Notes: a model not told the origin generated them from the sequence alone. Positions 34-18,257 are shown, counted from the stretch's first letter. The stretch: 29,052 nucleotides of DNA from a virus (IMGVR_UViG_2778261515_000007), one strand, 5' to 3'. Numbers and translations: made by a program.

Positions 34-55
34 TGGTGCCGGACTCGGAATCGAA
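34..55 (-). other. 22-nt remnant of the tRNA-Phe 3' end (att-like direct repeat typical of pheU/pheV-associated islands); not an intact tRNA
   Basis: Minus strand reads TTCGATTCCGAGTCCGGCACCA, matching the recalled tRNA-Phe 3' end (TTCGATTCCGAGTCCGGGCACCA) except for one missing G. The upstream T-arm and body are absent. Confidence 0.5.
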
Positions 56-219
56 GATTGCTTCTATCATGTTGATATAAATCTGATTTGTTTGGTTTGG
101 TGAGAAATGTACCCTCTTTTGTACCCTCGGTCCCTTTTGCTGCGAAAAAGGAATCAAACCCGGGAATTGGGAGATGAGGTGAAAAGAGGGACGCATATCC
201 TGGTCCATTTCAGTATGTG

Positions 220-912
220 TTATCTCTGGTTTTTGCCGTTTCTGCTGTTGTATACCCACTCAGCAATAAACTGTTCAGCGGGTAGTGGAGGTGCATAGCG
301 GTATCCCTGCAGATAGCTGCTTCCTTTCTCTGTCATGAACAACTCCTGTGATTCGGTTTCAATGCCTTCGGCAATGATATCAATACATAACCGACGAGCC
401 AGCTCAATAACATTTTCTACTATATGCCCGGAGATTTCATCCACTCCGACCATTTGTACAAACCCTTTATCGAGTTTGATGTAATCGACAGGAAACGACT
501 GCAGGTAGCTGTGAGTCGCATAACCCGTGCCAAAATCATCCAGTGCGAACAATACTCCTTGTTGATGTAATTTCGCAAATAACGCTTTTGATTCTGCTGT
601 GACGGATAGCTGGTTTCGCTCTGTCAGTTCCAGAAGCAGTTTCACTTTCCCTTTCGGGAAGGTGGATAGAAACTTCATACAGCTATCTTCCAGTCTCGGG
701 GACAGAAAATGCGCTGGTGAAATATTGATCCCAATATGAAATTGATCGGGTAAAAAATCTGCAACAGAATTAAGGCTATGTTCGACCTGAGACATCAACT
801 GTTGCGTTATCGGGGCAATTAATCCGGTGGACTCTGCCAGCGGGATAAACTGATCTGGTGGGATAATCCCGCTGACGGGGTGATGCCAGCGAATCAGTGC
901 GTATTCCGTTAC
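220..912 (-). pseudogene. EAL-domain (c-di-GMP phosphodiesterase) gene fragment, 5'-truncated at the IS2 junction
   Basis: Translation shows the ordered EAL-domain motifs EYALIRW, INIS, ELTE, DDFGTG, KLD, EGIE, QGY. The frame is closed by a stop at 913-915, only ~26 nt from the IS2 boundary, and no N-terminal sensor or GGDEF region is present. Confidence 0.75.
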
Positions 913-940
913 TCACCGATCTCCTTCACGGTAATACGCA

Positions 941-1228
941 GAACCGGGGATGACGGTCTCCCTCGTTGCCCGGCAACATGGTGTAGCAGCCAGCCAGTTA
1001 TTTCTCTGGCGTAAGCAATACCAGGAAGGAAGTCTTACTGCTGTCGCCGCCGGAGAACAGGTTGTTCCTGCCTCTGAACTTGCTGCCGCCATGAAGCAGA
1101 TTAAAGAACTCCAGCGCCTGCTCGGCAAGAAAACGATGGAAAATGAACTCCTCAAAGAAGCCGTTGAATATGGACGGGCAAAAAAGTGGATAGCGCACGC
1201 GCCCTTATTGCCCGGGGATGGGGAGTAA
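941..1228 (+). pseudogene. insC: IS2 InsC (OrfA) N-terminally truncated fragment
   Basis: In-frame sequence ...[30 protein letters not shown]... matches the recalled IS2 InsC C-terminal part. The start codon and about the first 38 codons are missing. Confidence 0.8.
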
Positions 1229-2091
1229 GCTTAGTCAGCCGTTGTCTCCGGGTGTCGCGTGCGCAGTTGCACGTCATTCTCAGACGAACCGATGACTGGA
1301 TGGATGGCCGCCGCAGTCGTCACACTGATGATACGGATGTGCTTCTCCGTATACACCATGTTATCGGAGAGCTGCCCACGTATGGTTATCGTCGGGTATG
1401 GGCGCTGCTTCGCAGACAGGCAGAACTTGATGGTATGCCTGCGATCAATGCCAAACGTGTTTACCGGATCATGCGCCAGAATGCGCTGTTGCTTGAGCGA
1501 AAACCTGCTGTACCGCCATCGAAACGGGCACATACAGGCAGAGTGGCCGTGAAAGAAAGCAATCAGCGATGGTGCTCTGACGGGTTCGAGTTCTGCTGTG
1601 ATAACGGAGAGAGACTGCGTGTCACGTTCGCACTGGACTGCTGTGATCGTGAGGCACTGCACTGGGCAGTCACTACCGGCGGCTTCAACAGTGAAACAGT
1701 ACAGGACGTCATGCTGGGAGCGGTGGAACGCCGCTTCGGCAACGATCTTCCGTCGTCTCCAGTGGAGTGGCTGACGGATAATGGTTCATGCTACCGGGCT
1801 AATGAAACACGCCAGTTCGCCCGGATGTTGGGACTTGAACCGAAGAACACGGCGGTGCGGAGTCCGGAGAGTAACGGAATAGCAGAGAGCTTCGTGAAAA
1901 CGATAAAGCGTGACTACATCAGTATCATGCCCAAACCAGACGGGTTAACGGCAGCAAAGAACCTTGCAGAGGCGTTCGAGCATTATAACGAATGGCATCC
2001 GCATAGTGCGCTGGGTTATCGCTCGCCACGGGAATATCTGCGGCAGCGGGCCAGTAATGGGTTAAGTGATAACAGGTGTCTGGAAATATAG
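1186..2091 (+). CDS. insD: IS2 transposase InsD (OrfB), apparently intact 301-aa reading frame
   Basis: 301-aa ORF overlapping insC in the -1 frame, as in IS2. Sequence matches recalled IS2 InsD, with DDE-type integrase-core motifs. Confidence 0.85.
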
Positions 2092-2255: not shown

Positions 2256-2278
2256 AGGGCCTCTCAGCGAAAGGCCCT
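2256..2278 (-). terminator. Possible intrinsic terminator for the 2295-2861 gene
   Basis: AGGGCC / GGCCCT 6-bp stem with 11-nt loop, 17 nt downstream of the stop on the minus strand. The following tract is only weakly T-rich. Confidence 0.3.
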
Positions 2279-2294: not shown

Positions 2295-2861
2295 TTAAAA
2301 GTCACTACATCCAAGATGACGTTCAATGGCACCATGCGATTCAATGTAAGCCTGGGCCGTCTGTTCCAGTACACCAAGCTCAGCGTTGTATGTGTTAGCT
2401 GCATCAAATATTAACGACAGCACTTCAGGATACACAACCAGATGTGTAACTGAGTTATCTTCGTCCAATACTTTTCCCCACGCCTGCTCAATCAGATTTC
2501 TGAGAACCACCACCTCACGACTCTTACACCAGACATCGTTATTAAGTAGCAGTACCATAAGATAAGGAGTGGTATCGTTAGCCATGGCCTCCCTACTCCA
2601 GAGATAATATAAAGGGGTGGGCTCAACAGATTTATCTTTACGTCGCTTGCACTGCAAATATTCAGAAATTAGTCTATGCAGTTCACCAGTAAAATCAGCC
2701 ATCAGAGAGGGAATTGCCTTATTCATACCTGGGCAAGGTATTAATTTAAATTGTAATAATTTAATTTTAGGATGTGTAGCTGCAGCCCGATACAGAGTTG
2801 CAAGGACACACTTTTGCCAGAGGACGTTACAGGAAAGCTTAATGTTTGATTCTGTATACAT
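2295..2861 (-). CDS. Hypothetical island protein (188 aa)
   Basis: ORF with SD-like AAGGTGA about 7 nt upstream of the ATG at 2861. No motif recognised. Confidence 0.5.
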   Translation of the reverse strand: MYTESNIKLSCNVLWQKCVLATLYRAAATHPKIKLLQFKLIPCPGMNKAIPSLMADFTGELHRLISEYLQCKRRKDKSVEPTPLYYLWSREAMANDTTPYLMVLLLNNDVWCKSREVVVLRNLIEQAWGKVLDEDNSVTHLVVYPEVLSLIFDAANTYNAELGVLEQTAQAYIESHGAIERHLGCSDF

Positions 2862-2888
2862 AATAAATCACCTTACAGTTACAATAGG

Positions 2889-3503
2889 TCAAAAACCGCT
2901 GTAGCCAAAGTTACGCTGGCCTGATGCTTTAGTGTCGAGCTTCGTCAGATAATCCAGACGTGCCAATAAGCGCTGATACTGCTCAGGGAAATCAGGATCG
3001 TTAATATCCAGGATGTAACGTCCATTAACAGGGAAATGAACTAGTCCCTGGTGATCTTCCAGTTCTAACCCTAAGGCACTGTACCAGGCTCCGGTAATTA
3101 ACCCTCTCAGGGTGTCAGAGCGCTCATAGTCTCCCAGGTGGTAATAGGCGTCTTTGTTAAAAAAAAGGCAGACGTGATAATGACATTTAAAGGACTGCGT
3201 ATATTCTTTCGCCCAGATAATACAAACCGACGTTGCGTAGGTGCGTTTGCCTTGTTGTTTTTTACGGTGTTGATCTGCATTAATTTTCGCATTCAGCGAG
3301 TTACGGAAACGAGATATCTCTCCGGGACTCAGGTTAGGAAAACAGGTAATGGTATCCCCGTTGTCAATCACGGGAGGATAATGGAGATCCACCCGTATTG
3401 CCGTTATTCTGGGATGTTTCTGGAAGAGGTTATTCACCTGGTTTCTTATTTTTAACCCGTGAGCCTCATGACATTCACCGTAAAGAGTTTCAATCGTAAT
3501 CAT
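2889..3503 (-). CDS. Hypothetical island protein (204 aa); possibly YagK/YfjJ-like family of CP4-type cryptic prophages (unverified)
   Basis: ORF with AAGGA 9 nt upstream of the ATG. Position next to a resolvase-like gene resembles the int-distal gene block of K-12 CP4-6, recalled from memory and not verified by alignment. Confidence 0.5.
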   Translation of the reverse strand: MITIETLYGECHEAHGLKIRNQVNNLFQKHPRITAIRVDLHYPPVIDNGDTITCFPNLSPGEISRFRNSLNAKINADQHRKKQQGKRTYATSVCIIWAKEYTQSFKCHYHVCLFFNKDAYYHLGDYERSDTLRGLITGAWYSALGLELEDHQGLVHFPVNGRYILDINDPDFPEQYQRLLARLDYLTKLDTKASGQRNFGYSGF

Positions 3504-3893: not shown

Positions 3894-4454
3894 TTACTCT
3901 GCAGTTAGATCAACAATACCTTTATCCCAGTGTCTTTTTACAGTGGATAAACTGATGCTTAATTTTCTGGCTGTTTGTGACTGACTGAACCCCTGCAATT
4001 TCAACTGTCTGATATTTTTACTATGAATACTCCCTTCTTTCCTTCCTGGTTTTCTTTTAATTTTCCGGATACTGATGTCGGGAATTTTTCCTCTAATATC
4101 TGTAGGTAAAATCATCCCGGTGAGTACCACAGGGATATCATCACCATCCGGCAACTCTGATGACATAAAAAAGCAAATATTAATACCTTGTCTGATACTT
4201 AAAGATAAAACCTCCTGTATTTTTTCCGGCGTATTACCAAAACAAGTTAACGATTTAGTAATCAGAATATCACCCCTTTGCATATCCTGCGTCAGGAGTC
4301 GAACTAACCGTTTTCTGTCTGCCAGAGTATAATCCGGGCGACCCAATTCGCCTGTTAACTGCAATAGTGGTTCTTTAAAATATCTCTGAATCATGGATTT
4401 TAAGCGATTAAGTTTTGACCATTTTTCAGAGTCTATGTATGCAAAACTCGCCAT
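3894..4454 (-). CDS. Serine-recombinase (resolvase/invertase)-like protein with C-terminal HTH, catalytic residues apparently absent
   Basis: Core region GDILITKS...IRQGINICFF resembles the Hin/Pin segment GDTLVVWKLDRLGRS...RGINFRSL, and the C-terminus has the HTH FSQSQTARKLSISLSTVKRHW. The N-terminus reads AYIDSEKW where YxRVSTxxQ is expected, and the DR..R motif is missing. SD GAGG is 5 nt upstream of the ATG. Confidence 0.55.
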   Translation of the reverse strand: MASFAYIDSEKWSKLNRLKSMIQRYFKEPLLQLTGELGRPDYTLADRKRLVRLLTQDMQRGDILITKSLTCFGNTPEKIQEVLSLSIRQGINICFFMSSELPDGDDIPVVLTGMILPTDIRGKIPDISIRKIKRKPGRKEGSIHSKNIRQLKLQGFSQSQTARKLSISLSTVKRHWDKGIVDLTAE

Positions 4455-4675: not shown

Positions 4676-5422
4676 TCATTCATCTTCAAATGGGTTAATA
4701 ATAATAACATCTCCACCTGTTCTGGAACTTTGTGAAACTTCCTCTGTTCTCAGAACAGGCACTATTACAGCCTTATTATTGATATAAAAAATCGGAATAT
4801 GAAAAGTACAAAATCCTGTACTACGAATCTGATGTCGCCTCACTGTTTCTTTCGTACCATACTCAATCAACTCATCTATCTGCAGGCAAACTGAATTGCA
4901 AAAGTCAAAAAAATAATCCCCAAAAACACTGGTTTTAATCAGAATGGTTTTATAAAACCCTCCTGCACGATTCAGGGTATGGGAAACTTTTCTGTTCGTG
5001 TAAATACAAATTGCCTTCTCAACTTTATAATATTCCAGCATTAAGGTCGCATTCTCTTTAATTCCCTTTTTCTCTGCAACTCCCATAGCATTTCTGGTGC
5101 TTTCATGAGGAAATATCTTTCTATCGAGAACATCATATTCATATTTGATATGCGATTTATAAATGCTATGAAAAAACTCTCCTTTTGTTATTTCAGGCTT
5201 TGTCCGTTGCACAAATGGTTCCTCATTAAAAAACTGACGTAGCTTATCCTCTATATCAGTTATAGCAACAATATTTTCATTTATCTTGTTTAAAACAGGA
5301 GCCCCTAGCTTTAAACACTCTTTAATCGCTGCTGAAAATGAGCATTTTTTTAAATGCTGATACTTTTTAATTACATCAGCTTCATATGTTTCTGCAAGAG
5401 AGAAAGAGACACGTTTCATCAT
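4676..5422 (-). CDS. Hypothetical protein (248 aa) with possible ribbon-helix-helix-like N-terminus
   Basis: Strong SD AAGGAG upstream of tandem ATG ATG. N-terminal KRVSFSLAETYEADVIKKY...SFSAAIKECLKLG has a strand-helix-helix pattern; the rest is unrecognised. Confidence 0.5.
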   Translation of the reverse strand: MMKRVSFSLAETYEADVIKKYQHLKKCSFSAAIKECLKLGAPVLNKINENIVAITDIEDKLRQFFNEEPFVQRTKPEITKGEFFHSIYKSHIKYEYDVLDRKIFPHESTRNAMGVAEKKGIKENATLMLEYYKVEKAICIYTNRKVSHTLNRAGGFYKTILIKTSVFGDYFFDFCNSVCLQIDELIEYGTKETVRRHQIRSTGFCTFHIPIFYINNKAVIVPVLRTEEVSQSSRTGGDVIIINPFEDE

Positions 5423-5484: not shown

Positions 5485-5712
5485 TTAATACTGACTAATC
5501 CACCACAATAGATCACTTAATAACCATCCACAGGATTTCTTTCCAATAGTTTTACGTGGCGGGAATTTTCCTTCACGTTCCAGTTTCCAGGCTTGTGAAC
5601 GAGAAATAGACGTAATGTTCTGACGTTCCTCTTCTCGTACCAGTCTGTCACAGGTGTATCCATAGATCTTCAAAATTGATAAACGGTTCTCATCTCTTAA
5701 CGGCTTCCACAT
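5485..5712 (-). CDS. AlpA-family prophage transcriptional regulator (putative integrase/excision activator)
   Basis: RLVREEERQNITSISRSQAWKLEREGKFPPRKTIGKKSCGWLLSDLLWWI follows the AlpA/MerR-like HTH pattern. SD AAGGAG is 7 nt upstream of the ATG at 5712; the longer ORF start at 5730 lacks an RBS. Confidence 0.65.
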   Translation of the reverse strand: MWKPLRDENRLSILKIYGYTCDRLVREEERQNITSISRSQAWKLEREGKFPPRKTIGKKSCGWLLSDLLWWISQY

Positions 5713-6487
5713 ATTGCTCTCCTTATACATTCATGATTTTCAGATTGTATATGCATGTGAGCTGCTCAAATCACTACATCTATCTGTAGTGGTATGCTGT
5801 TGAACAGCACCAGCAACTCACGAGCAAAACAATACCTTTGCACAACAAAGAAATCAAATTGCGAGAATTGATTTAATTAACTGACTTCTAATAACACAAT
5901 AACAACAAAGAAAGTCGCAATATAAAAATAATTCAAACAATACTTTTTAATATACAAAATAAAAACCAAAATCATAATCTTCGTAGGTTATTTTATGCAG
6001 ACAAAAACAAAAAAAATCTTGTTATGATCTATGATATCAAGAGGAGGGGTAGTGACCAAAAATTTTCCCCAGAAAAGCCCCCACAACATTAGTTTGAAAA
6101 CGTGACGAAGTTCACAAAATTATCTTCTGGCGATAATAGAACTTGTAAGAGGGAGTTGATTTTTGCCAACTTGCTAAAGCTAAAGTGCAGACAAAAGATA
6201 ATAATTGAATGAAAACGATACATATTTTCAGATGAAAGTGACGTGACTGTAGAGGGCTATAACCGTAAAATCATTTACGTCCTGAGCAATATGCAACAAA
6301 AGGGAATGCTCGTAAAAAAATCAGGAATAAACGCTAAGGATATCGTATTAGATTCAGCATCGTAGCCACTGCATAACTGATTCCCATTTCGTAGAGGCTG
6401 TTAACTCTGTATCAATGTCCTGACAAAGGACTGTATCAAGTTTCTCTACTGGAAACAGCTATGCAATAGACGGAAGAATTTAACATT

Positions 6488-8092
6488 ATGGTAACTAAAA
6501 AGGTAAAAACAAACCACCCGTACTATCGTGTTTTATCTGGCACCTCCATGCCGTTTCCCCACATACATGAAGCTGTTTCCGAACAGTTGCTTCTACTCAT
6601 TTTCAAAGCACGCAGATTGTATCTGGATCCAGAATATCGTCCCTGGTTTGATGAACAACATCGGATTCTCTCGGCATTACGCGCTAACACAAAACTACAA
6701 AATATTTTAGAGCAAAATAGAGAGGACTACTCCATAGGTGAGACCGATAATCCACTATCTAAAGAGCTGTATGCTGCTTTTCAGGTTATGTGCCATTTAT
6801 ACAATGGTTTTGATAACAGACTCGTCAGCCTGAAAACCTGGGGAGATATGAACAGGGAACCAACAGCAAAATTTGTCGGCCAAAATAGTGGTGGCTGGAA
6901 AACACCTGAGATGGAAGAATTCGTCAGAAACGATTTGTTCAATATTCTGACAGATTGCAAAGCTCATTGCTCACCACTTCCCGCTCTGGTTCGACAAGGA
7001 TATTGCCATCAAGATCTTTCTGTTGCGCACTCATGTACTAAAGAATTACTGGAACAACTGAACCGATACCATCAAATTGATGAATCAGCGATACTTGCCA
7101 GAACCCTTGGTTTGGCTATTAACAACTGCTATCACTCAGAAACAGAGATTCCTGAATGGCTTTCTCCTTTTGAAAATGAATACAAAAGTCCCTGGAATTG
7201 TGAGAAACCAGATACTAACGATGTGAGTAAACTTAGAAAACAATTGCTAACAATCGGGCGTACAGAATTCGTGGACAAAATGTTTTCGCTAGCCAACAAA
7301 AATGCAACAAAGATAATATATGATGGATACGTTAAACTTTATGCTCTGGAAATATATGAATGGTTAAATAAATTAGTGCAATATTTTAAAGGAAATGATT
7401 TTATTCGTTACACCTGGAAATTCACAACAATTATTTCCGATGAAAGTGACACGATTGAAAACACCACCGCATGGGAAAAAGACTATTGTCAAATCACTAT
7501 ACAGCGCGATGAACTTCTGAAACTGATTTATACCAATACCCTGCAGGATGCAGCAATGAATCTTGCTGGTTGCCTGCAACAGGCATACATAGAACCGTTA
7601 AAAAGGGAAATAAATTATCCAGGAATAAACATTGATGCAAAAGAGCGTGAAATTAGAAAATCTATTGAATTCAGGAGCGAACTGAATAACTTCACAAACA
7701 TCATGAAACAACTGGAAACATTTGAAAAATGGTATAACGCCAATAAAATTCTGTTGGTAAGTAACAAAAAGAAACGTACAGAAAAGATTGACGTGAATAT
7801 TCGTCTTGCAGGACTGAAAGGCTATGATCTGAATGAAGGTATACCTGATGGTCAGGGACGCAAAATTAAAGATGGTGTGAATGAACTCGTCAAGGCAGAT
7901 GGCAGTCTACAACTTCCACAAGATATCAGTGACACTTCGCTTAACCGTTACCGTCAAGCAGTTCAACACATTATTAAGGATGAGATCGACACGTTGCTGA
8001 TAGCACAGAGGGAAAAAAATAAAATAAATCCATATAGCGAAGATAGATACTCGATACGACCTTTATGGGGAAAATGTCTGGTCGAACAGTAA
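6488..8092 (+). CDS. Hypothetical protein (534 aa), orphan cargo gene
   Basis: Long ORF opposite in orientation to neighbouring island genes, preceded by a ~775-bp very AT-rich leader. No P-loop, signal peptide or other motif recognised; the RBS is weak (GGAAG about 12 nt upstream). Confidence 0.55.
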   Translation: MVTKKVKTNHPYYRVLSGTSMPFPHIHEAVSEQLLLLIFKARRLYLDPEYRPWFDEQHRILSALRANTKLQNILEQNREDYSIGETDNPLSKELYAAFQVMCHLYNGFDNRLVSLKTWGDMNREPTAKFVGQNSGGWKTPEMEEFVRNDLFNILTDCKAHCSPLPALVRQGYCHQDLSVAHSCTKELLEQLNRYHQIDESAILARTLGLAINNCYHSETEIPEWLSPFENEYKSPWNCEKPDTNDVSKLRKQLLTIGRTEFVDKMFSLANKNATKIIYDGYVKLYALEIYEWLNKLVQYFKGNDFIRYTWKFTTIISDESDTIENTTAWEKDYCQITIQRDELLKLIYTNTLQDAAMNLAGCLQQAYIEPLKREINYPGINIDAKEREIRKSIEFRSELNNFTNIMKQLETFEKWYNANKILLVSNKKKRTEKIDVNIRLAGLKGYDLNEGIPDGQGRKIKDGVNELVKADGSLQLPQDISDTSLNRYRQAVQHIIKDEIDTLLIAQREKNKINPYSEDRYSIRPLWGKCLVEQ

Positions 8093-10217: not shown

Positions 10218-10413
10218 AGAACCTCTTTTCTAAACCAGTAACAATCAGAATAACTCGTGATTTTGGGTCAGGTAATGGGTCAGGTAACGATCGTACAATG
10301 AAGAAAAAACGGAACCAAGCGGAGACAGAGAAAATTACATAATTCATTGATTATAAACAACTAATAAAGCAATCACGAACAAACAAAAACAATATAGAAC
10401 GAACTTGCCTCAT

Positions 10414-10460
10414 GACTCATAATCGCTTGGTCGCTGGTTCAAGTCCAGCAAGGGCCACCA
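10414..10460 (+). other. 47-nt 3' remnant of tRNA-Ile2 (anticodon CAU, ileX/ileY-type) = att-site copy; not an intact tRNA
   Basis: GACTCATAATCGCTTGGTCGCTGGTTCAAGTCCAGCAAGGGCCACCA matches the recalled ileX/ileY 3' portion from the anticodon loop to CCA, with one acceptor-stem mismatch. The 5' half of the tRNA is absent. Confidence 0.6.
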
Positions 10461-11210
10461 AATCATTATTTACGTATCAGGAAGAGTTAAGGGTACAAGG
10501 GGTACTCGATGGCGGTCTATATTTCATGACTAACGCCATTTCAAGGAAGAAGTGCGGTGGGTGGTTTCGAATGAGGGCTGGTGTTTTGGTACGTGGCACG
10601 CCACTGCAATGTATTTATCCATCAGTACTCATTCAAAAGTACCTGGAAAAAATGCCTGCTATGCCAAGCGGGCAAATTGCTTACATGTGGAATTAAGTAA
10701 TTAACGATAAAGCCAGAGTATTATCATTTATTATACCCCTTCATTTAATCAGGTTAATTACTCAAATCACTGAACTATTCTCTGTTCGCTCACTGATGAT
10801 AAGTGAGTACCACAACCAATGTATGTAGAACAATGCCGTAGAGTAAGGATGAAATGTCTCTGCCACGCCTTAAACATCTACTACTGACCAGAACACCCGC
10901 CGCAGGCAGATGAGTTTTGTGAGCGTTACAGGAGCGTGGCTATGCTCATTAACCAACGCTATTGAGATATAAATTTCTAACACTTGAAAAACGATTTTCA
11001 CTAATAAATTATAACGGTTTTTTTTATCATACAGCGAAATAACCTTTTGTTTATTAAATTTAACATTCCTGTGCTAATTTAATTAAAAGTTCCATGCGTA
11101 GCAAGTGAAGCAGTTAATGTCAGTAATTGTCTCAAATGAGCGTTTTTTTATAGTGACAAACAGTAATAACATTAAAAATAGCCATGTAGACATTAATTGA
11201 GGAATAGACA

Positions 11211-11693
11211 ATGTTAGTTAGTAAAAGCAACGGATTTAACGCTAGCGCAGTTTTGGGTAGTGGAAGTTATAATGAAAATAAATCTTCTAAACACATGGAG
11301 CTACTAGCTCATAGTATTTTAAAATTAATTTGTAAGGAAGCTGCATCAGAGACGTATCGCGGTGCTCTTGAAACTTTACAAAAAATGATGTCTGAATGTA
11401 TATATCAAGAAGGCAACGCCTTTGTCATTATGGGAGCTGGAGAACAATTAAAACGTATTAAATATGAAGTTGGTGAAAATAACTTAAAGGTATTCAACGT
11501 ACACTTTAATAATAATCACGAGTTAGTTAGTTCTGGTGAGCCTGACGTAATATGTTTAAGCAAGCAGGTCTGGGAAAATCTTCTCATTAAACTAAAGCTG
11601 GAAAACAATGAAAATGTGTTTTCTGAAACTAAAAAATTATCGAATAAAAATAATGCCGATCAGTTTTTTGAATGCGCTAAAAGAAATGAATAG
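11211..11693 (+). CDS. Hypothetical protein (160 aa), AT-rich
   Basis: ORF with SD GAGGA 8 nt upstream of the ATG. No motif recognised. Confidence 0.5.
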   Translation: MLVSKSNGFNASAVLGSGSYNENKSSKHMELLAHSILKLICKEAASETYRGALETLQKMMSECIYQEGNAFVIMGAGEQLKRIKYEVGENNLKVFNVHFNNNHELVSSGEPDVICLSKQVWENLLIKLKLENNENVFSETKKLSNKNNADQFFECAKRNE

Positions 11694-11792
11694 AACCTTT
11701 TCGATAATATAAGAAAAAGTGATTTTCATGTTGGTTTACTTAAGCCAAGTAGTACGCGTAGTGTTATTTTAGAAACGCCGCCAAATGTCTGT

Positions 11793-12584
11793 ATGGAATC
11801 ACGTAATTCATATGAAAACAAAATAGATGAGATTTCATCTTTGTCAGAGTCAAAGGAACACCCCATAGATATTCAAGAAAAAAAAGATGCGTTTGTGAAT
11901 GAGTTCAAGGGGGTATTATTTGATAAAAATACAAGGTCTTCAGAGCTTCTGTTTAATTTTTATGAGTGTTGCTATAAGTTTTTACCAAGAGCTCAGCCTC
12001 AAGATAAAATCGATAGCTATAATTCAGCACTGCAAGCTTTTTCCATTTTTTGTTCATCTACGTTGACACATAATAATATAGGCTTTGATTTCAAATTATT
12101 TCCTGAAGTCAAGCTGTCTGGAGAACATCTTGAAACGGTATTCAAATACAAAAATGGCGATGATGTCCGGGAGATAGCCAAAATTAACATTACTCTCCAA
12201 AAAGAAGAGGGTGGTTTATATAATTTACGTGGATTGGATTTTAAGGGGTGCTTCTTTTCTGGACAGAACTTCAGTAACTATGATATTCAATATGTGAACT
12301 GGGGAACGTCATTGTTTGATGTTGATACTCCGTGTATTTTTAATGCGCCTGCTTACAACAAGAGTAATGAAAAATCATTAAAACCTGTGAGCGAAAACGG
12401 TTTAAGTGGAGTATTGACTGATCGTAATAATAAAATAAAACTCATCACGGGCGTGGCACCATTCGATGATATTTTATTTATGGATGATGACTTTGATGAT
12501 AGTTCCTCTGAGGATGATCCCGTTGAGAATAGTCCTGTTGTGACTAGTCCCGTTGTATCAAGTTCTAAAAGCAGTTTTCAATGA
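11793..12584 (+). CDS. Hypothetical protein (263 aa) with pentapeptide-like periodic segment and acidic/Ser-Pro-rich C-terminal tail; positionally equivalent to K-12 ypjB (unverified)
   Basis: Segment RGLDF KGCFF SGQNF SNYDI QYVNW GTSLF has a hydrophobic residue at every fifth position. C-terminus reads DDDFDDSSSEDDPVENSPVVTSPVV. RBS is weak. Confidence 0.5.
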   Translation: MESRNSYENKIDEISSLSESKEHPIDIQEKKDAFVNEFKGVLFDKNTRSSELLFNFYECCYKFLPRAQPQDKIDSYNSALQAFSIFCSSTLTHNNIGFDFKLFPEVKLSGEHLETVFKYKNGDDVREIAKINITLQKEEGGLYNLRGLDFKGCFFSGQNFSNYDIQYVNWGTSLFDVDTPCIFNAPAYNKSNEKSLKPVSENGLSGVLTDRNNKIKLITGVAPFDDILFMDDDFDDSSSEDDPVENSPVVTSPVVSSSKSSFQ

Positions 12585-12853
12585 TTAATAAATGGCAATT
12601 TTTACAAAGAGATAATAACGTAGATTGAAACAATATGTATTATTGATTGAGTAAACGGGATTATTCTTCACACTACATCCATTTTAGTGTCACTACCAAA
12701 GAAAAAGGGGCTACGTTTTCATGTAACCCCTTGATTTATTTGGTGGGCTGGCAGTGACTGAATTGGTGCTGTAATTGGTTGAAATATTTCATCTAATGTC
12801 TGGTTCAACTTTCCTTAGCTGCCTGAAAGTTTTTTGATCTTACCCAGCAATAA

Positions 12854-12919
12854 CAGCGTTACGGTGCACCACGCCTGACTGAAGAACTGCGTGCTCAGGG
12901 TTACCACTTCAACGTAAAA
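12854..12919 (+). pseudogene. IS3-family transposase OrfB remnant (short fragment)
   Basis: Frame encodes [22 protein letters not shown], resembling the recalled IS3-type OrfB motif [20 protein letters not shown]. It is bounded by stops and diverges afterwards. Confidence 0.35.
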
Positions 12920-13157
12920 CCGTGGCAGGAGGTCCGGACTGAAAAAACTGGTCAGGACATCATCGGCAGGGAACGCACTGCTAGTCTGTAAACTGAACCG
13001 ACTGGGGCGCAGTATGTGGCATCTTGTCGTGCTGTTGGAGGAGCTGTGCGAACGTGGTATTAACTTTCGTGCTCTGGCCCAATCTATATTTGCCCAACAA
13101 TGGGGGGACGAATGCTGTAAAAGTAAAACAATCTGCGATCTCAAAGTTATTGTGTGA
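12918..13157 (+). pseudogene. pinH: DNA-invertase (Pin/Hin serine recombinase) fragment lacking the catalytic N-terminus
   Basis: Frame encodes ...[51 protein letters not shown]..., matching the Hin/Pin middle region (TLVVWKLDRLGRS...RGINFRSLTDSI). The N-terminal Ser region is missing and the C-terminus is degenerate. Symbol assigned from recalled K-12 synteny (pinH fragment beside ypjA). Confidence 0.55.
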
Positions 13158-13495
13158 TTTTTATGTGAGCAGAAGATATTCATCAGAAACGATTATGTAA
13201 ATCATTTTATTTTGCCAACTGCCTGATTGTCGAAAGAAAAGAATACGCCCGTGTTTCCTGAATAGATTGACTTTTTTATCCAACCACACTTCAGCGCACT
13301 GCGTTTAAAAAATGCCTCATTCTTATGCGGAATATCACCATTTCATCATGATGTCTTTGATGAGCGGTGAACACAATACACTTGCGCTGTCTCTTCAGGA
13401 TGAATCCCCTGGTCTGGTGCCTGTGGGCTGATGTTGCAGCAAAGCTAAGGTCGCTTAAACGCTACTCAGTATTCACTTTTCAGAGGATGAAATTT

Positions 13496-16400
13496 ATGAA
13501 CAGGACCAGTCCCCATTATTTTCGCCGCTCAGTACTTTCCTTATTGATATCTGCCTTGATATATGCCCCGCCCGTGATGGCGGCCTTTACTACTAATGTT
13601 ATTGGTGTGGTAAACGATGAGACTGTAGATGGTGTCCAAAAAGTAGATGAACGAGGTACAACAAATAACACTCATATTATCAACCATGGCCAGCAGGAGG
13701 TCTATGGTGGGATATCTAATAGTAGTATTATTGAAACTGGTGGCGAGCAACTAGTATCAATCCATGCCGATATTAACGGGCAAGCTAATAATACAACCAT
13801 TAATGGAGGCAGACAGTCAATTGAGTACGGAGGAATTTCTACTGGCACGATAATCGAAAGTGGCAATCAATATGTTCATAAAGGTGGTACCAGCAATGAC
13901 ACGACAATTAAGGGCGGTACTTCACGCATAGAGGGGGGGACTGCGAATGGAACAATCATTGATGGTGGCAGCCAACGAGTAACAACTCAGGGGCATGTCG
14001 ACAGTACAACGATAAATAAGTCTGGCTCTCAGGACATCACGCAAGGAAGTCTGGCAACGAACACAACCATAAATGGTGGTCGACAGTATGTTGAACAGAG
14101 CACAGTAGAAACAACCACCATTAAAAATGGCGGTGAGCAAAGAGTATATGAGAGCCGTGCGCTGGACACGACGATTGAAGGCGGAACTCAGTCTCTGAAT
14201 AGTAAGTCAACGGCAAAAAATACGCATATCTATTCTGGTGGCACGCAAATTGTTGATAACACCAGCACCTCGGATGTTATTGAAGTTTATTCTGGTGGCG
14301 TGCTTGATGTTAGTGGTGGTACGGCAACAAATGTTACCCAGCACGATGGTGCAATTTTAAAAACTAACACTAACGGTACGACGGTGAGCGGTACGAATAG
14401 TGAAGGTGCATTCTCCATCCACAATAAAGTGGCAGACAATGTGTTGCTGAAAAATGGAGGCCATTTAGAAGTATCTCATTCCGCAAACAAGACGATTATT
14501 AAAGATAAAGGAACAATGTCAGTTTTAACCAATGCTAAAGCTGATGCGACCCGAATAGATAATGGCGGGGTTATGGATGTTGCAGGAAACGCGACAAATA
14601 CCATAATTAATGGTGGCACACAGAATATTAATAATTATGGCATAGCCACAGGCACCAATATCAACAGCGTAACGCAAAATATCAAAAGCGGCGGGAAAGC
14701 TGACACAACAATTATATCCTCCGGGAGCCGGCAGGTTGTTGAGAAAGATGGTACGGCAATTGGCAGCAATATTAGCGCCGGAGGCTCGCTGATTGTCTAT
14801 ACCGGCGGTATTGCACATGGGGTTAACCAGGAGACGGGCAGTGCTTTAGTTGCCAACACGGGCGCAGGGACTGATATCGAAGGATACAACAAGCTCTCTC
14901 ACTTCACTATTACCGGAGGGGAGGCTAATTATGTTGTGCTGGAAAATACCGGCGAACTGACGGTAGTGGCTAAAACCTCGGCGAAAAATACCACCGTTGA
15001 TGCTGGCGGTAAACTGATCGTCCAGAAGGAGGCCAAAACAGATACCACCAGACTTAACAATGGCGGCATTCTGGAGGTTCAGGACGGTGGAGAGGCTAAG
15101 CATGTAGAGCAACAATCCGGCGGCGCATTAATTGCTTCCACGACTTCCGGAACACTTATCGAAGGAACCAACAGTTATGGTGATGCTTTCTACATCAGGA
15201 ATTCAGAAGCTAAAAATGTAGTGCTGGAAAACGCTGGCTCATTAACAGTCGTCACTGGTTCCCGGGCAGTTGATACGATTATTAATGCCAACGGCAAAAT
15301 GGATGTTTATGGAAAAGATGTTGGCACTGTACTTAATAGTTCTGGCACCCAAACAATATATGCCAGTGCCACTTCTGATAAAGCAAATATCAAAGGTGGC
15401 AAGCAAACGGTATATGGTTTAGCCACTGAGGCAAATATCGAAAGTGGTGAACAAATTGTTGATGGTGGGTCAACAGATAAAACACACATCAATGGTGGCA
15501 CGCAAACCGTTCAGAATTATGGTAAGGCGATCAATACCGATATCGTCTCTGGCCTACAACAAATTATGGCAAACGGGACAGCGGAAGATTCCATTATTAA
15601 TGGGGGTTCACAGGTAGTTAATGAGGGCGGTCTGGCTGAAAACTCGGTGCTTAATGACGGCGGCACACTCGATGTGCGGGAGAAAGGCAGCGCAACGGGG
15701 ATACAGCAGAGTAGCCAGGGCGCTTTGGTTGCAACCACCAGGGCGACGCGGGTCACAGGAACACGCGCGGATGGCGTCGCGTTCAGCATCGAGCAGGGTG
15801 CGGCGAACAATATCCTGCTGGCAAATGGCGGCGTGTTAACCGTGGAGTCAGACACCTCTTCTGACAAAACACAGGTCAATATGGGCGGACGGGAGATCGT
15901 CAAAACAAAAGCCACTGCGACAGGCACGACGCTCACCGGCGGTGAACAAATTGTCGAGGGTGTGGCGAATGAGACAACAATTAACGACGGCGGAATACAA
16001 ACAGTTTCAGCTAACGGAGAGGCAATAAAAACAAAGATCAATGAAGGCGGTACGCTGACAGTCAACGATAATGGCAAAGCGACAGATATCGTCCAGAACA
16101 GCGGTGCCGCTCTCCAGACGAGCACGGCTAACGGTATTGAAATCAACGGTACTCACCAGTACGGTACTTTTTCCATTTCCGGCAATTTAGCGACCAATAT
16201 GTTGCTGGAAAATGGCGGTAATTTATTGGTATTAGCAGGTACCGAAGCTCGCGACTCCACGGTTGGCAAGGGTGGGGCAATGCAAAACCTGGGTCAGGAC
16301 TCCGCCACAAAGGTTAACTCTGGCGGGCAATATACCCTTGGGCGGTCAAAAGATGAGTTTCAGGCTCTGGCCCGGGCAGAAGATCTCCAGGTCGCTGGCG

Positions 16401-18070
16401 GTACGGCAATCGTCTACGCAGGTACGCTGGCGGATGCATCGGTCAGTGGCGCGACAGGAAGCCTGTCGTTAATGACGCCACGGGATAATGTTACGCCAGT
16501 TAAACTCGAAGGGGCGGTCCGGATTACCGATAGCGCGACATTGACTCTGGGAAATGGCGTCGATACCACGCTTGCCGACCTGACGGCTGCCAGCCGGGGC
16601 AGTGTCTGGCTTAACAGCAATAATTCCTGTGCAGGTACCAGCAACTGCGAATATAGAGTAAACAGTTTGCTACTCAACGACGGTGATGTTTATTTGTCAG
16701 CACAAACAGCAGCGCCTGCCACAACTAACGGTATCTACAATACGCTGACAACCAATGAACTTTCCGGTAGCGGTAATTTCTACCTGCATACCAACGTTGC
16801 AGGCTCCCGGGGCGATCAACTGGTCGTCAACAACAACGCCACTGGTAATTTTAAAATCTTTGTTCAGGATACCGGCGTCAGCCCACAGTCTGACGACGCG
16901 ATGACGCTGGTGAAAACAGGGGGAGGGGATGCTTCGTTTACGCTGGGCAATACCGGCGGTTTCGTTGATCTTGGGACCTATGAGTATGTCCTGAAAAGTG
17001 ACGGCAACAGCAACTGGAACCTGACCAATGATGTCAAACCCAACCCGGACCCCATCCCAAATCCAAAGCCAGACCCAAAACCCGATCCAAAGCCAGACCC
17101 AAATCCAAAACCAGACCCTACTCCCGATCCAACGCCGACACCCGTTCCGGAGAAACGCATTACGCCTTCTACGGCAGCCGTACTCAATATGGCAGCAACA
17201 TTACCGTTGGTATTTGATGCTGAGCTAAACAGTATTCGCGAGCGGTTGAACATAATGAAAGCGAGTCCACACAACAATAATGTCTGGGGGGCGACGTATA
17301 ACACCCGTAATAATGTCACCACCGATGCGGGTGCCGGGTTTGAGCAGACGCTGACCGGAATGACAGTGGGGATCGACAGCCGTAATGATATTCCTGAAGG
17401 AATTACCACGCTAGGCGCTTTTATGGGCTATTCCCATTCACATATCGGTTTTGATCGCGGAGGACATGGCAGTGTGGGCAGTTATTCTCTGGGCGGCTAT
17501 GCCAGTTGGGAACATGAAAGTGGTTTCTATCTGGACGGTGTCGTGAAGCTGAACCGTTTTAAAAGTAACGTAGCAGGTAAAATGAGCAGCGGTGGAGCCG
17601 CCAATGGCAGTTACCACAGCAACGGGCTGGGCGGTCACATTGAAACCGGGATGCGATTTACCGATGGTAACTGGAACCTGACGCCGTATGCATCGTTAAC
17701 GGGGTTCACCGCTGATAACCCCGAATATCATTTATCCAATGGCATGAAATCGAAATCAGTCGATACCCGCAGTATATATCGTGAACTGGGCGCAACGCTG
17801 AGTTACAACATGCGTCTGGGGAACGGTATGGAAGTTGAGCCGTGGCTGAAGGCGGCTGTGCGCAAAGAATTTGTCGATGATAACCGGGTGAAAGTGAATA
17901 GTGACGGTAATTTCGTCAATTATTTGTCGGGCAGACGTGGAATATACCAGGCAGGTATTAAAGCCTCATTCAGCAGTACGTTAAGCGGGCATCTTGGGGT
18001 GGGGTATAGCCATAGTGCCGGTGTGGAATCCCCGTGGAACGCGGTAGCTGGTGTGAACTGGTCGTTCTGA
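13496..18070 (+). CDS. ypjA: AIDA-I-type autotransporter adhesin (~1524 aa)
   Basis: N-terminal signal peptide (MNRTSPHYFRRSVLSLLISALIYAPPVMA), long passenger of ~19-aa GG-x-Q/T beta-helix repeats, Pro-rich linker, and C-terminal beta-barrel ending ...VAGVNWSF. SD GAGG is 8 nt upstream of the ATG at 13496; the ORF-track start at 13367 is a GTG with no RBS. Symbol from size and synteny recalled for K-12. Confidence 0.8.
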   Translation: MNRTSPHYFRRSVLSLLISALIYAPPVMAAFTTNVIGVVNDETVDGVQKVDERGTTNNTHIINHGQQEVYGGISNSSIIETGGEQLVSIHADINGQANNTTINGGRQSIEYGGISTGTIIESGNQYVHKGGTSNDTTIKGGTSRIEGGTANGTIIDGGSQRVTTQGHVDSTTINKSGSQDITQGSLATNTTINGGRQYVEQSTVETTTIKNGGEQRVYESRALDTTIEGGTQSLNSKSTAKNTHIYSGGTQIVDNTSTSDVIEVYSGGVLDVSGGTATNVTQHDGAILKTNTNGTTVSGTNSEGAFSIHNKVADNVLLKNGGHLEVSHSANKTIIKDKGTMSVLTNAKADATRIDNGGVMDVAGNATNTIINGGTQNINNYGIATGTNINSVTQNIKSGGKADTTIISSGSRQVVEKDGTAIGSNISAGGSLIVYTGGIAHGVNQETGSALVANTGAGTDIEGYNKLSHFTITGGEANYVVLENTGELTVVAKTSAKNTTVDAGGKLIVQKEAKTDTTRLNNGGILEVQDGGEAKHVEQQSGGALIASTTSGTLIEGTNSYGDAFYIRNSEAKNVVLENAGSLTVVTGSRAVDTIINANGKMDVYGKDVGTVLNSSGTQTIYASATSDKANIKGGKQTVYGLATEANIESGEQIVDGGSTDKTHINGGTQTVQNYGKAINTDIVSGLQQIMANGTAEDSIINGGSQVVNEGGLAENSVLNDGGTLDVREKGSATGIQQSSQGALVATTRATRVTGTRADGVAFSIEQGAANNILLANGGVLTVESDTSSDKTQVNMGGREIVKTKATATGTTLTGGEQIVEGVANETTINDGGIQTVSANGEAIKTKINEGGTLTVNDNGKATDIVQNSGAALQTSTANGIEINGTHQYGTFSISGNLATNMLLENGGNLLVLAGTEARDSTVGKGGAMQNLGQDSATKVNSGGQYTLGRSKDEFQALARAEDLQVAGGTAIVYAGTLADASVSGATGSLSLMTPRDNVTPVKLEGAVRITDSATLTLGNGVDTTLADLTAASRGSVWLNSNNSCAGTSNCEYRVNSLLLNDGDVYLSAQTAAPATTNGIYNTLTTNELSGSGNFYLHTNVAGSRGDQLVVNNNATGNFKIFVQDTGVSPQSDDAMTLVKTGGGDASFTLGNTGGFVDLGTYEYVLKSDGNSNWNLTNDVKPNPDPIPNPKPDPKPDPKPDPNPKPDPTPDPTPTPVPEKRITPSTAAVLNMAATLPLVFDAELNSIRERLNIMKASPHNNNVWGATYNTRNNVTTDAGAGFEQTLTGMTVGIDSRNDIPEGITTLGAFMGYSHSHIGFDRGGHGSVGSYSLGGYASWEHESGFYLDGVVKLNRFKSNVAGKMSSGGAANGSYHSNGLGGHIETGMRFTDGNWNLTPYASLTGFTADNPEYHLSNGMKSKSVDTRSIYRELGATLSYNMRLGNGMEVEPWLKAAVRKEFVDDNRVKVNSDGNFVNYLSGRRGIYQAGIKASFSSTLSGHLGVGYSHSAGVESPWNAVAGVNWSF
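17037..17152 (+). repeat. Tandem Pro-X dipeptide-coding repeats (PNPDPIPNPKPDPKPDPKPDPNPKPDPTPDPTPTPVP) forming the autotransporter linker
   Basis: Directly visible periodic CCA/CCC-rich DNA repeats inside the ypjA-like gene. Confidence 0.7.
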
Positions 18071-18080
18071 CCATCAACGA

Positions 18081-18109
18081 AAAAGCCCACATCTGTGGGC
18101 TTTCATGTT
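18081..18109 (+). terminator. Intrinsic terminator of the autotransporter gene
   Basis: AAAAGCCCAC-ATCT-GTGGGCTTT hairpin followed by TCATGTT, 11 nt after the TGA stop. A second palindrome GGAGCCGCGGCTCC follows at 18114-18127. Confidence 0.6.
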
Positions 18110-18230
18110 ACCAGGAGCCGCGGCTCCTTTGCGTATCCTTTTATGTCTCCTCACCGTCTGGTCGGTGTTTTGCTGAGACTTCTAACTTCCTGTTTTTGTT
18201 GGTGTTGTCCTTACACCGTCCAATCATGAT

Positions 18231-18257
18231 TGGTGGAGCTGGCGGGAGTTGAACCCG
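18231..18257 (-). other. 27-nt remnant of the tmRNA (ssrA) 3' end = prophage att core copy; not an intact ssrA
   Basis: Minus strand reads CGGGTTCAACTCCCGCCAGCTCCACCA, identical to the recalled 3' end of E. coli tmRNA. Sequence diverges immediately upstream. Confidence 0.6.

Follow-up and report, generated by a model that had tools for sequence, protein, structure and literature searches.

The window analysed here, a stretch of 29,052 nt whose coordinates count from its first letter, corresponds to positions 1251944–1280995 of the chromosome of Escherichia coli rl0044, a pig isolate, and differs from RefSeq NZ_CP121356.1 at two positions only. It lies in the ileY–ypjA–ssrA hotspot, where rl0044 has, in this order, ygaQ, intact tRNA-Ile, island, ileY', ypjCB, ypjA, ssrA', prophage, intact ssrA and smpB (Table 1). 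In general, the region is a mosaic of horizontally acquired elements of ordinary and already known kinds, in line with the earlier note, which had described a mosaic of integrative elements with three 3'-end remnants, of tRNA-Phe, tRNA-Ile(CAU) and SsrA. The remnants are all present at the reported positions, with small corrections, each keeping its native downstream flank, and the two integrases lie where that note placed them. The ARAGORN search that it had proposed revealed no intact tRNA or tmRNA gene in the window and located intact ileY and ssrA outside it. A 25-mer from the Ile end and one from the ssrA end are each found a single time in the sequence, whereas 100 shuffles gave 0 occurrences even when 3 mismatches were tolerated; these counts, together with the native flank at each remnant, exclude chance matches. 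The three fragments are thus real but ordinary scars.

Table 1 Features of the window, with the evidence on which each assignment is based.
Feature	Position	Strand	Evidence or remark
Native pheV downstream flank, terminator hairpin	1–33	-	Identical to K-12 pheV downstream
pheV' remnant, 22 nt; fossil attR of a pheV island, internal cargo	34–55	-	TTCGATTCCGAGTCCGGCACCA
pheV-type island distal end; EAL-domain gene 3' part, 5'-truncated	56–898 (CDS 220–897)	-	Pfam EAL, 6e-36
42-nt filler at the EAL'/IS2' junction	899–940	.	Also in ETEC1749 and EC361
IS2 without left end; right edge of captured segment	941–2091	+	PGAP: IS3-like element IS2 family transposase, missing N-terminus
Two YagK/YfjJ-family genes	2295–3503	-	Pfam YagK_YfjJ_C, 1.8e-10 and 8e-55
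YagL-like HTH protein	3894–4454	-	35% identity to K-12 YagL, E 2e-25; HTH_7 domain
YagM homologue	4676–5422	-	31% identity, full length, to K-12 YagM, E 9e-33
AlpA-family regulator, candidate excisionase/activator	5485–5730	-	Pfam Phage_AlpA, 8e-14
534-aa ORF, low G+C, within integrase module	6488–8092	+	ORF only
P4-type tyrosine integrase of the ileX/ileY island	8901–10217	-	Arm-DNA-bind_3 + Phage_int_M + Phage_integrase (Pfam)
Tandem dodecamer (TGGGTCAGGTAA)x2, integrase-proximal arm	10264–10287	+	Candidate arm-type integrase binding site
ileY' remnant, 47 nt; right-hand att site of ~59-kb island	10414–10460	+	Native 3' part
Ancestral segment between convergent ileY and ssrA	10461–18230	+	Same order as K-12
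ypjCB pseudogene	11211–12584	.	NCBIfam Ecoli_YpjCB
pinH fragment	12921–13088	.	Within ancestral ileY–ssrA segment
ypjA autotransporter	13496–18070	.	Within ancestral ileY–ssrA segment
ssrA' remnant, 27 nt; integrase-proximal prophage att site	18231–18257	-	Equals 3' end of intact ssrA, same genome
Left 10.8 kb of ~42.5-kb phiP27-like lambdoid prophage	18258–29052	.	Gene content and phiP27 similarity
Prophage integrase	18390–19589	-	Arm-DNA-bind_2 domain

The ancestral segment provides the frame for the two insertions. The K-12 neighbourhood reads psaA–ypjA–pinH–ypjB–ypjC–ileY, and in SLK172 the ypjCB–ypjA segment lies flush against an intact ssrA. The empty ileY site is seen in K-12 and most genomes, with an intact ileY beside ypjC and 100% identity to window 10414–10700. 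In rl0044, the intact tRNA-Ile(CAU) gene (record 1203127–1203202) lies ~49 kb left of the window, where it forms the left end of the island, and the 47-nt repeat of its 3' part lies on the same strand 59.2 kb away, adjacent to a tyrosine recombinase gene, which is the arrangement of a tRNA-integrated (Campbell-type) island. The att ends, reported earlier as mismatched, in fact match (Ile/Ile), because the real left end is the intact ileY outside the window and the Phe remnant is no element end.

The Ile remnant is 100% identical to the K-12 ileY 3' part from the anticodon loop to CCA and is followed by native ileY downstream flank; any 'mismatch' suspected here is the difference between ileY and ileX and does not reflect decay. 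The 5' half of the intact ileY is that of the host and its T arm is of the element type (GTTGGTTCAAACCCAAC, compared with GCTGGTTCAAGTCCAGC in the native gene), which makes the gene a hybrid. Within the 47-nt core, the first 20 nt are identical at both island ends and 5 differences follow, which therefore places the crossover in the anticodon-loop region. A CP4-6-like island of ~59 kb has been inserted into ileY by its P4-type integrase, whose attP core equals the 3' 47 nt of tRNA-Ile(CAU); at the far island end the tRNA gene has been made whole again, with a 5' half supplied by the host and a 3' half supplied by the element.

The island integrase (438 aa) lies 196 nt from the remnant and is transcribed away from the att site. 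It aligns with CP4-57 IntA over its full length (24% identity, E 1e-24) and with IntF over 167 aa only (25%, E 1e-5), and is not an IntF-family member. Integrase and Ile remnant were detected in 456 of 5426 E. coli genomes. The 24-mer made up of the tandem dodecamers is found once in each att arm of this island family, on the integrase-proximal and the tRNA-proximal side alike, and at no other place in the 15 loci fetched, a distribution by which the repeats qualify as candidate arm sites of the integrase. The 534-aa ORF of the same module had no match in Pfam, NCBIfam, PADLOC, PHROGs or PDB sequences.

The parallel that the earlier note drew with K-12 CP4-6 (thrW … intF), an integrase beside a tRNA fragment, extends to the whole architecture. 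Both elements have an intact tRNA beside a toxin-antitoxin/DUF987/RadC/antirestriction/DUF932/GTPase module, IS-rich metabolic cargo in the middle, and a yagK–yagL–yagM…integrase arrangement at the far end, with the integrase by the displaced att fragment and transcribed inward; gene order, the homology of YagL and YagM, and the YagK/YfjJ-domain genes identify the rl0044 island as CP4-6-type in its architecture. The target of the rl0044 island is tRNA-Ile(CAU) (ileY/ileX) whereas that of CP4-6 is thrW, the cargo differs, and the rl0044 integrase is nearer to the P4-type IntA than to IntF. CP4-57 (ssrA–intA–alpA–yfjJ) shares the P4-type integrase with Arm-DNA-bind_3, the AlpA-family and YfjJ-family genes and the chromosomal neighbourhood, but its integrase lies beside the intact ssrA, whereas that of the ileY island lies beside the fragment because its att core has the opposite orientation with respect to the integrase. 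Throughout the ileX/ileY family the core points away from the integrase, which is therefore found beside the displaced native 3' fragment.

The second insertion is a lambdoid prophage in ssrA. The 27-nt repeat is present at both of its ends, with the integrase at one, and its genes follow the order integrase…repressor…replication…Q…lysis…head…tail…tail fibre. The intact ssrA (record 1312676–1313038) lies 42.5 kb to the right, past the tail-fibre genes, and the integrase is thus at the remnant end, distal to intact ssrA, as had been noted before; in 33 of 33 genomes with this integrase it is located beside the ypjA-side remnant. The phiP27-like prophage sits in the final 27 nt of ssrA, its integrase next to the displaced fragment and the intact gene past the tail fibres. 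Behind the integrase, the window contains early genes, the repressor, replication genes and, at its end, an IS3-family insertion that splits the DnaB-like helicase gene, suggesting that the prophage may be defective. Similarity to the Stx2e phage phiP27 (94.5% nucleotide identity over 67% of window 18200–29052) covers early, immunity and replication functions, and the lambdoid gene order and HK97/P27-type morphogenesis genes are also shared. The integrase/att module differs, the match beginning past the integrase at window 19732, as does the IS-interrupted helicase gene; no stx gene was annotated in the stretches fetched for the rl0044 prophage.

The Phe remnant equals the last 23 nt of K-12 pheV minus one G of the GGG run, and the same one-G deletion is present in the native pheV-side remnant elsewhere in rl0044. 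With native pheV flank adjoining it and no intact tRNA in the window, the 22-mer is neither a chance match nor part of an intact tRNA, two of the ways in which the earlier note thought its reading might fail. The EAL match next to it covers profile positions 68–236 only, and HNSQ2209, which has a variant of the locus, carries the gene in full. In 455 genomes, pheV islands end on the right with this remnant and the EAL gene. Such islands have a ~23-bp direct repeat and a terminal EAL gene, the LAA and pic/set PAIs use the same pheV site, and window 34–898 is 99.1% identical to the right end of the strain 3059 island, where the EAL gene is complete. The difference is that the ileY island of rl0044 keeps the last ~0.85 kb only, detached from pheV and from any integrase, inside another island and with 17.5 kb of former chromosomal flank.

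This flank and the EAL' end belong to an 18.4-kb segment (glcA'–sslE–T2SS-beta–yghD–pheV'–EAL') between an IS1 and the truncated IS2, with the genes glcA', sslE, pppA, gspS-beta, gspC-M and yghD, the pheV terminator, pheV' and the EAL gene. It runs leftward beyond the window through yghD, gspL..C, pppA, sslE and glcA', so that the Phe remnant is separated from intact ileY by 18 kb of chromosomal genes and, beyond these, by another 31 kb of island. We consider it very probable that two Campbell-type insertions flank ypjCB–ypjA and that the Phe fragment is cargo and the att site of neither; the pheV-island fossil attR would have entered the ileY island inside this piece of another E. coli's chromosome. 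The earlier statement that the Phe and Ile fragments do not stem from one integration event is thereby borne out, with Phe as a passenger.

Another copy of these genes is present in rl0044. The native sslE–gsp–yghD cluster is retained at its pheV locus, followed by an SPI-7-type ICE, and homology between the two loci begins inside glcA and stops precisely at window position 55, with 98.1% identity over 11,971 nt (228 mismatches), 95.9% in sslE (1,859 nt) and 96.1% in the 2,400 nt of glcA' and the sslE 5' part. Since the two T2SS-beta copies are 96–98% identical and the native one is kept, the island copy is regarded as a xenolog, and import from another lineage accounts more readily for these values. 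Alternatively, the pheV-flanking region of rl0044 itself might have been translocated or duplicated into the ileY island without any foreign donor. This, too, would yield DNA of the same species in an unchanged gene order, with IS elements on either side; its variants are an old duplication, or a native copy later replaced by recombination. We consider this unlikely in view of 228 mismatches over 11,971 nt and 4% sslE divergence in one genome, and of an island allele for which identities of at least 99.7% are confined to a handful of pig strains, the best other loci reaching no more than 97.6%.

The same observations bear on the chimeric island proposed in the earlier note, in which a pheV and an ileY island recombined reciprocally in this chromosome to give a single hybrid element that has the Phe and the Ile remnant as its genuine ends. 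Positions 56–898 do derive from the end of a pheV-type island, the sequence from 941 onward belongs to the tRNA-Ile island, and IS elements lie at the joint. The Phe remnant is internal, however, with chromosomal genes and island extending left to intact ileY; the native pheV locus is undisturbed and has lost neither its T2SS-beta nor its pheV' remnant; and the divergence between the two copies is 2–4%. The hybrid, which we hold to be very improbable, is refuted by where intact ileY lies and by the native locus still being in place, and the proposal gives way to a Phe remnant carried in 18.4 kb of foreign E. coli chromosome that is bordered on either side by IS elements.

Tandem arrays at tRNA and tmRNA genes are known, as in the traffic at ssrA. 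The pheV, ileX and ssrA genes are recognised integration sites (PMC7545054, PMC7067040), which would suit tandem or nested insertion of a Phe-targeting element at a Phe-tRNA-like site within the Ile island or adjoining it. There is hardly any room for such an event: no tRNA-Phe gene was found by ARAGORN in 145 kb around the window and no second Phe repeat within it, and neither an intact nor a second Phe fragment occurs in the island, whose sole integrase is the Ile-associated one, with none of pheV type in the island or near the remnant. Furthermore, the DNA past the remnant is chromosomal pheV flank (yghD, gsp) rather than island, and the junctions have IS elements, not att repeats, with no Phe repeat bracketing 56–898 or more.

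Assembly error deserves little credence either. Two T2SS-beta copies at 96–98% identity and many IS copies can confuse assemblers, and mis-joining or collapse over these repeats could create a false yghD–pheV'–IS2–integrase junction, but the copies are diverged enough to be distinguished and the same junction is present in independent complete assemblies. Misassembly, which the earlier note had allowed for, is excluded by the EAL'/IS2 junction in five of these (ETEC1749, EC361, ETEC1717, ETEC1718 and, in a variant form, RM10740) and by the less-deleted variant in HNSQ2209. Window 1–940 is 100% identical in the independent assemblies of rl0044, ETEC1749 and EC361 (Switzerland, Belgium, elsewhere), and the junction has an ISCro1 insertion in ETEC1717 and ETEC1718; it recurs in other pig isolates. 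Among the loci fetched, the 42-nt filler was seen only in rl0044 and ETEC1749, and EC361 also has it within its match to all of window 1–940.

The captured segment is not a composite transposon with the same IS at both ends: IS1A forms the left edge, and the right edge is the truncated IS2 in rl0044 or an IS3-family element plus IS21 in HNSQ2209. Roughly 190 nt are estimated to be missing from the left end of IS2, and BA92 has a complete IS copy at this position. Given the truncated IS2, the filler alongside it and the different families (IS1 versus IS2), later deletions are taken to have erased the original joints. No donor strain with a capture intermediate was found. We infer that IS elements mediated the capture in a donor strain, two successive inversions between a tRNA-Ile island and a nearby pheV island being one possible route, and that the loaded island then moved horizontally.

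The clonal relative ETEC1749 informs on mobility. It has a sister island newly and site-specifically integrated at ileX, which lends indirect support to excision and reintegration, and ~552 kb are inverted between the sister islands at ileX and ileY. The exchange maps to the equivalent of window 10345–10450, 106 nt that include the att core, which suggests recent integrase activity and points to site-specific rather than general homologous recombination; the integrase of the ileY island may still be active. No excised circle or attP-type junction was detected in metagenome contigs, GTDB genomes or the 5426 E. coli genomes. It is a tentative possibility that the ileX/ileY family is currently active, that T2SS-beta and SslE have been made mobile cargo, and that the integrase catalyses attR x attR inversions. 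If so, some pig-associated E. coli would have gained a second, foreign copy of T2SS-beta and the SslE mucinase from a core-genome operon, and attR x attR recombination between inverted ileX and ileY copies would produce half-megabase inversions as in ETEC1749. An integrative element at leuX in O145:H28 was generated by inversion between integrative elements (PMC7067040). The inversion between islands in ETEC1749 resembles that case, but differs in that its exchange lies within the att-core interval.

The window matched positions 1251944-1280995 of the chromosome of E. coli rl0044, an isolate from pig faeces in Switzerland (NZ_CP121356.1; hereafter, record), and differed from RefSeq at only two positions: a T-run ahead of ypjCB is longer by one T (11025), and a G replaces the T that lies one base ahead of the stop codon of the integrase (18389). 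The locus is the ileY–ypjA–ssrA region, which in the K-12 backbone, in the opposite orientation, reads ssrA, CP4-57, psaA (an ssrA fragment), ypjA, pinH, ypjB, ypjC, ileY and ygaQ. The three tRNA/tmRNA 3'-end remnants reported in the earlier note are real: 25-mers from the Ile and ssrA ends each occurred once and were found in 0 of 100 shuffles (≤3 mismatches allowed), and the Phe remnant sits on native pheV flank. The ARAGORN search proposed there detected no intact tRNA or tmRNA in the window, and recovered an intact tRNA-Ile outside it, labelled Met from its CAU anticodon. Within 10461-18230, no additional ssrA, Ile or Phe fragment by which the ypjA segment could be recognised as an old island was found at ≤3 mismatches. 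A 94-aa "hypothetical protein" called by PGAP starts with an ATG two bases before the Ile remnant and reads through it; it is without a family match and is probably spurious.

Coordinates of the features discussed (window positions unless marked "record" or given for a fetched locus: L001, L004, L005 and L007 from rl0044; L008, L009, L010 and L017 from ETEC1749)
Feature	Position or aligned length	Strand	Detail
pheV native terminator and flank	1-33		as in K-12
Phe remnant	34-55	minus	reads TTCGATTCCGAGTCCGGCACCA; pheV 3' end, one G missing
534-aa ORF	6488-8092	plus	in low-G+C integrase module
P4-type integrase	8901-10217		Arm-DNA-bind_3, Phage_int_M, Phage_integrase
Tandem dodecamer, right arm	10264-10287		126 nt before Ile remnant
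PGAP 94-aa ORF	10412-10696	plus
Ile remnant, 47 nt	10414-10460	plus	100% identical to K-12 ileY 3' part, anticodon loop to CCA
ssrA remnant	18231-18257	minus	last 27 nt of ssrA
Prophage integrase	18390-19589		Arm-DNA-bind_2, Phage_integrase
isrK and C4 antisense RNA	26032-26220	plus	Rfam, 63 and 84 bits
IS3-family element	28652-29052		region where the IS splits the DnaB-like helicase gene; the IS runs off window end
Intact tRNA-Ile(CAU)	record 1203127-1203202 (L004 16128-16203)	as Ile remnant	adjoins ygaQ
Tandem dodecamer, left arm	L004 16261-16284		57 nt after intact tRNA
CBASS operon	record 1214624-1219218 (L004 27625-32219)		outside window
Island-borne sslE–pppA–gspS-beta–gspC-M	record 1234437-1251828 (L001 1-14885; L004 47438-49901)
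Native sslE–gsp–yghD cluster	record 787-804 kb		at pheV locus
Native Phe remnant, ~48 nt	L007 13913-13960
Intact ssrA, with smpB	record 1312676		after prophage
Prophage part between Q and lysis genes	L005 3127-6402		outside window
ETEC1749 inversion loci	L008 30345-30450, L009 23182-23287, L010 32093-32168, L017 29933-30008
Island vs native copy, gsp genes to Phe remnant	11,971 nt		98.1% identity
Island vs native copy, sslE	1,859 nt		95.9% identity
Island vs native copy, glcA'–sslE 5'	2,400 nt		96.1% identity

The Ile remnant and the adjacent integrase form the right-hand boundary of one ~59-kb island (hereafter, the ileY island), the left end of which lies beyond the window. The intact tRNA-Ile(CAU) is located 59.2 kb away, and the Ile remnant is followed by native ileY downstream sequence. 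The earlier note had read the Phe and Ile remnants as mismatched ends that suggest a chimeric island, or tandem or nested insertions; its remnants and integrase positions stand, but the mismatch does not, as the true boundary is outside the window and the two ends of the ileY island match. At the left end, the intact ileY is a hybrid tRNA gene that joins a 5' half of ileY-type host sequence (GGCCCTT…) to a 3' half supplied by the element, the latter carrying a variant, internally compensated T arm (GTTGGTTCAAACCCAAC vs GCTGGTTCAAGTCCAGC) and an ileX-like acceptor strand; the displaced remnant in the window is still native ileY. Between the two ends, the 47-nt core is identical in its first 20 nt and has five differences in the other 27 nt, indicating a crossover in the anticodon-loop/variable region. 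The element half also brings G67, and with it a U6-G67 wobble in the acceptor stem of the hybrid ileY; the pairing of this element half with the 5' half of ileX is perfect.

Both arms of the island contain a tandem dodecamer, (TGGGTCAGGTAA)x2, and among the loci fetched this 24-mer was present once per att arm of the ileX/ileY island family and nowhere else. From this distribution, we infer that the tandem dodecamers are candidate arm-type integrase sites. The attP junction of an excised or tandem form would consist of …CGAACTTGCCTCAT, GACTCATAATCGCTTGGTCG, TTGGTTCAAACCCAACAGGGGCCACCA and TACACAACAAAGGG…, in that order. An exact 40-mer of this junction had no match in metagenome contigs or GTDB genome contigs, and a 440-nt synthetic attP gave no spanning match in 5426 E. 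coli genomes; both results are uninformative and are not negative evidence.

Directly left of the window are yghD (gspM), gspL to gspC, gspS-beta, pppA, sslE and the 3' ~530 nt of glcA, and beyond the truncated glcA are an IS1 and then island DNA again (asrABC, a hemagglutinin fragment, several IS, a CBASS operon, cah and a TA module). In K-12 and other strains, pheV is directly beside yghD, or has only islands or capsule genes in between, and pheV islands typically end on the right in an EAL-domain gene with a 22-23-nt Phe repeat (455 genomes). The rl0044 chromosome has retained its native sslE–gsp–yghD cluster at the pheV locus, followed by a longer Phe remnant and a SPI-7-type ICE, so that the island-borne cluster is a second copy, apparently intact. 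On the right, the two copies are homologous up to window position 55 and no further; on the left, their homology stops within glcA, beside the IS1. Given these limits, the flanking island DNA and the retained native cluster, the Phe remnant is internal cargo, i.e., a fossil pheV-island attR (right end) within an 18.4-kb segment of another E. coli's chromosome. Identity of ≥99.7% to the island-borne allele was confined to a few isolates from pigs (ETEC1717/1718, ETEC1749, EC361 and RM10740), and the best other loci were ≤97.6% identical. The recurrence of the same junction in these independent assemblies rules out the misassembly that the earlier note had allowed for.

Our first idea for the yghD–pheV'…integrase–ileY' junction, a loss or relocation of the ~325-kb pheV–ileY interval, was dropped because the left flank is island DNA that leads to an intact ileY, and the native pheV locus is intact. 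The right joint of the captured segment in rl0044 consists of a 5'-truncated EAL-domain gene, 42 nt of filler and an IS2 without its left end, of which presumably ~190 nt are absent. The corresponding joint in HNSQ2209 is less reduced (a complete EAL gene, then IS3-family and IS21 elements, then the same IS2 remnant), which shows that the rl0044 joint has since lost sequence by deletion. The native ~48-nt Phe remnant and the island-borne 22-mer have a one-G deletion in common. The SPI-7-type ICE at the native locus encodes ParA, DnaB-PI, ParB and TraD, among others, and gspH and gspL are frameshifted in the ETEC1749 island copy. The CBASS operon of the ileY island is complete (phospholipase, DncV, E2/UBC and Cap3).

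Capture as a composite transposon is excluded because the segment has different IS elements at its two ends. One consistent route is a model with two inversions, given that ileX and pheV are only ~100 kb apart. The joint glcA→…yghD–pheV'–EAL–IS–YagK…integrase–Ile' would arise by a first inversion, between an IS copy in an ileX-borne island and one at the distal end of a pheV island. If IS1 copies then recombined in a second inversion, the backbone would be restored with the segment trapped in the island, and the loaded island would then have been transferred horizontally into a strain with its own T2SS-beta, giving two copies. No intermediate of this capture was found.

A tRNA 3' fragment within an island is thus not necessarily its att site and can be a fossil in captured chromosomal DNA; boundary callers that pair an integrase with the nearest tRNA-like repeat would here bracket 10 kb of a real element of 59 kb. 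On a tRNA-Ile island, a few E. coli associated with pigs, ETEC isolates among them, have an additional T2SS-beta/SslE cluster that has diverged and seems to be intact, which matters for studies of SslE in colonisation and as a vaccine antigen. In a limited, non-exhaustive keyword search of the literature, neither the rl0044 ileY island nor a second T2SS-beta/SslE cluster borne on an island was found to have been described.

An integrase usually lies next to the intact tRNA, as in CP4-57 of K-12, where it is beside the intact ssrA, whereas the integrase of the ileY island is beside the fragment. The layout of CP4-6 in K-12 is the same as that of the ileY island, and the two share their gene order: a toxin–antitoxin/DUF987/RadC/antirestriction/DUF932/GTPase module beside the intact tRNA (thrW in CP4-6), IS-rich cargo in the middle, and yagK–yagL–yagM…integrase (intF in CP4-6) at the far att end. 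Proteins of 186 and 248 aa in rl0044 are homologous to K-12 YagL (35%, E 2e-25) and YagM (31%, E 9e-33), respectively, and the island integrase is nearer to IntA (24%, full length, E 1e-24) than to IntF. Of 5426 complete E. coli genomes, 456 have the integrase together with the Ile remnant, at ileY or ileX. The shared layout shows that an integrase beside the fragment is a trait of this family, with the att core inverted relative to the integrase gene, and no anomaly, in agreement with the earlier comparison to CP4-6. In the other islands fetched, the 534-aa ORF is conserved along with the integrase module to which it belongs; it had no match in Pfam, NCBIfam, PADLOC, PHROGs or PDB sequences.

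ETEC1749 (NZ_CP122712.1) is a clonal relative of rl0044, with core flanks 99.99% and the island 99.985-100% identical. The integrase end of its counterpart of the ileY island (island A) is joined to ileX'–nfeF, and we rejected the reading of this as the same island moved to ileX, i.e., as evidence of mobility, because the distal end is still joined to ileY–ygaQ, which denotes an inversion. A sister island with different cargo (island B) lies between mug–ileX and ileY'–ypjCB, with an integrase module of 99.3% identity (53 mismatches in 8.25 kb). The ileX of ETEC1749 is a hybrid with an element-type T arm, and ileX of rl0044 is empty; island B was therefore acquired site-specifically at ileX in the ETEC1749 lineage, followed by a ~552-kb inversion between the two inverted attR sites. 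The exchange is bracketed by the last A/B marker (window-equivalent 10344) and an ileX/ileY marker (10451) to 106 nt that include the core, or ~1.3% of the ~8.36 kb of shared homology. On this post hoc argument from marker positions, integrase-mediated attR × attR recombination is favoured over a RecA-dependent exchange. In place of the CBASS operon of the rl0044 island, island B carries a methyltransferase/helicase/GIY-YIG nuclease cluster.

The sister islands at the inverted ileX and ileY are a natural example of a large inversion with its crossover at the att core. pheV, ileX and ssrA are recognised integration sites, and recombination between islands and inversions have already been described (PMC7545054, PMC7067040). 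Mechanistically, nothing new was found at this locus, and the understanding of such elements is unchanged.

The genes right of the 27-nt ssrA remnant have a canonical lambdoid order: integrase, early genes, LexA-family repressor, a cro-like gene, Rha/ash, replication and Q, then lysis, P27-type terminase, HK97-type head, tail, J, lom and tail fibres. The intact ssrA and smpB follow the prophage, and thus the integrase is indeed at the remnant end, far from the intact ssrA, as the earlier note had proposed. In SLK172, without the prophage, the intact ssrA directly adjoins ypjA. The integrase was beside the ypjA-side remnant in 33 of the 33 genomes carrying this integrase, which makes this orientation a fixed property of its attP. 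The early region is 94.5% identical to that of phiP27, whereas the integrase/att module differs. A DnaB-like helicase gene is split by the IS3-family element, and the prophage may for this reason be defective in replication. The isrK and C4 antisense RNA matches lie in the immunity region beside the ash/Rha genes, and constitute a P1/P7-type antirepressor control module within a lambdoid prophage. Between Q and the lysis genes, the prophage also carries an ompC-like porin gene, a DNA methyltransferase and a tRNA-Gly(UCC).
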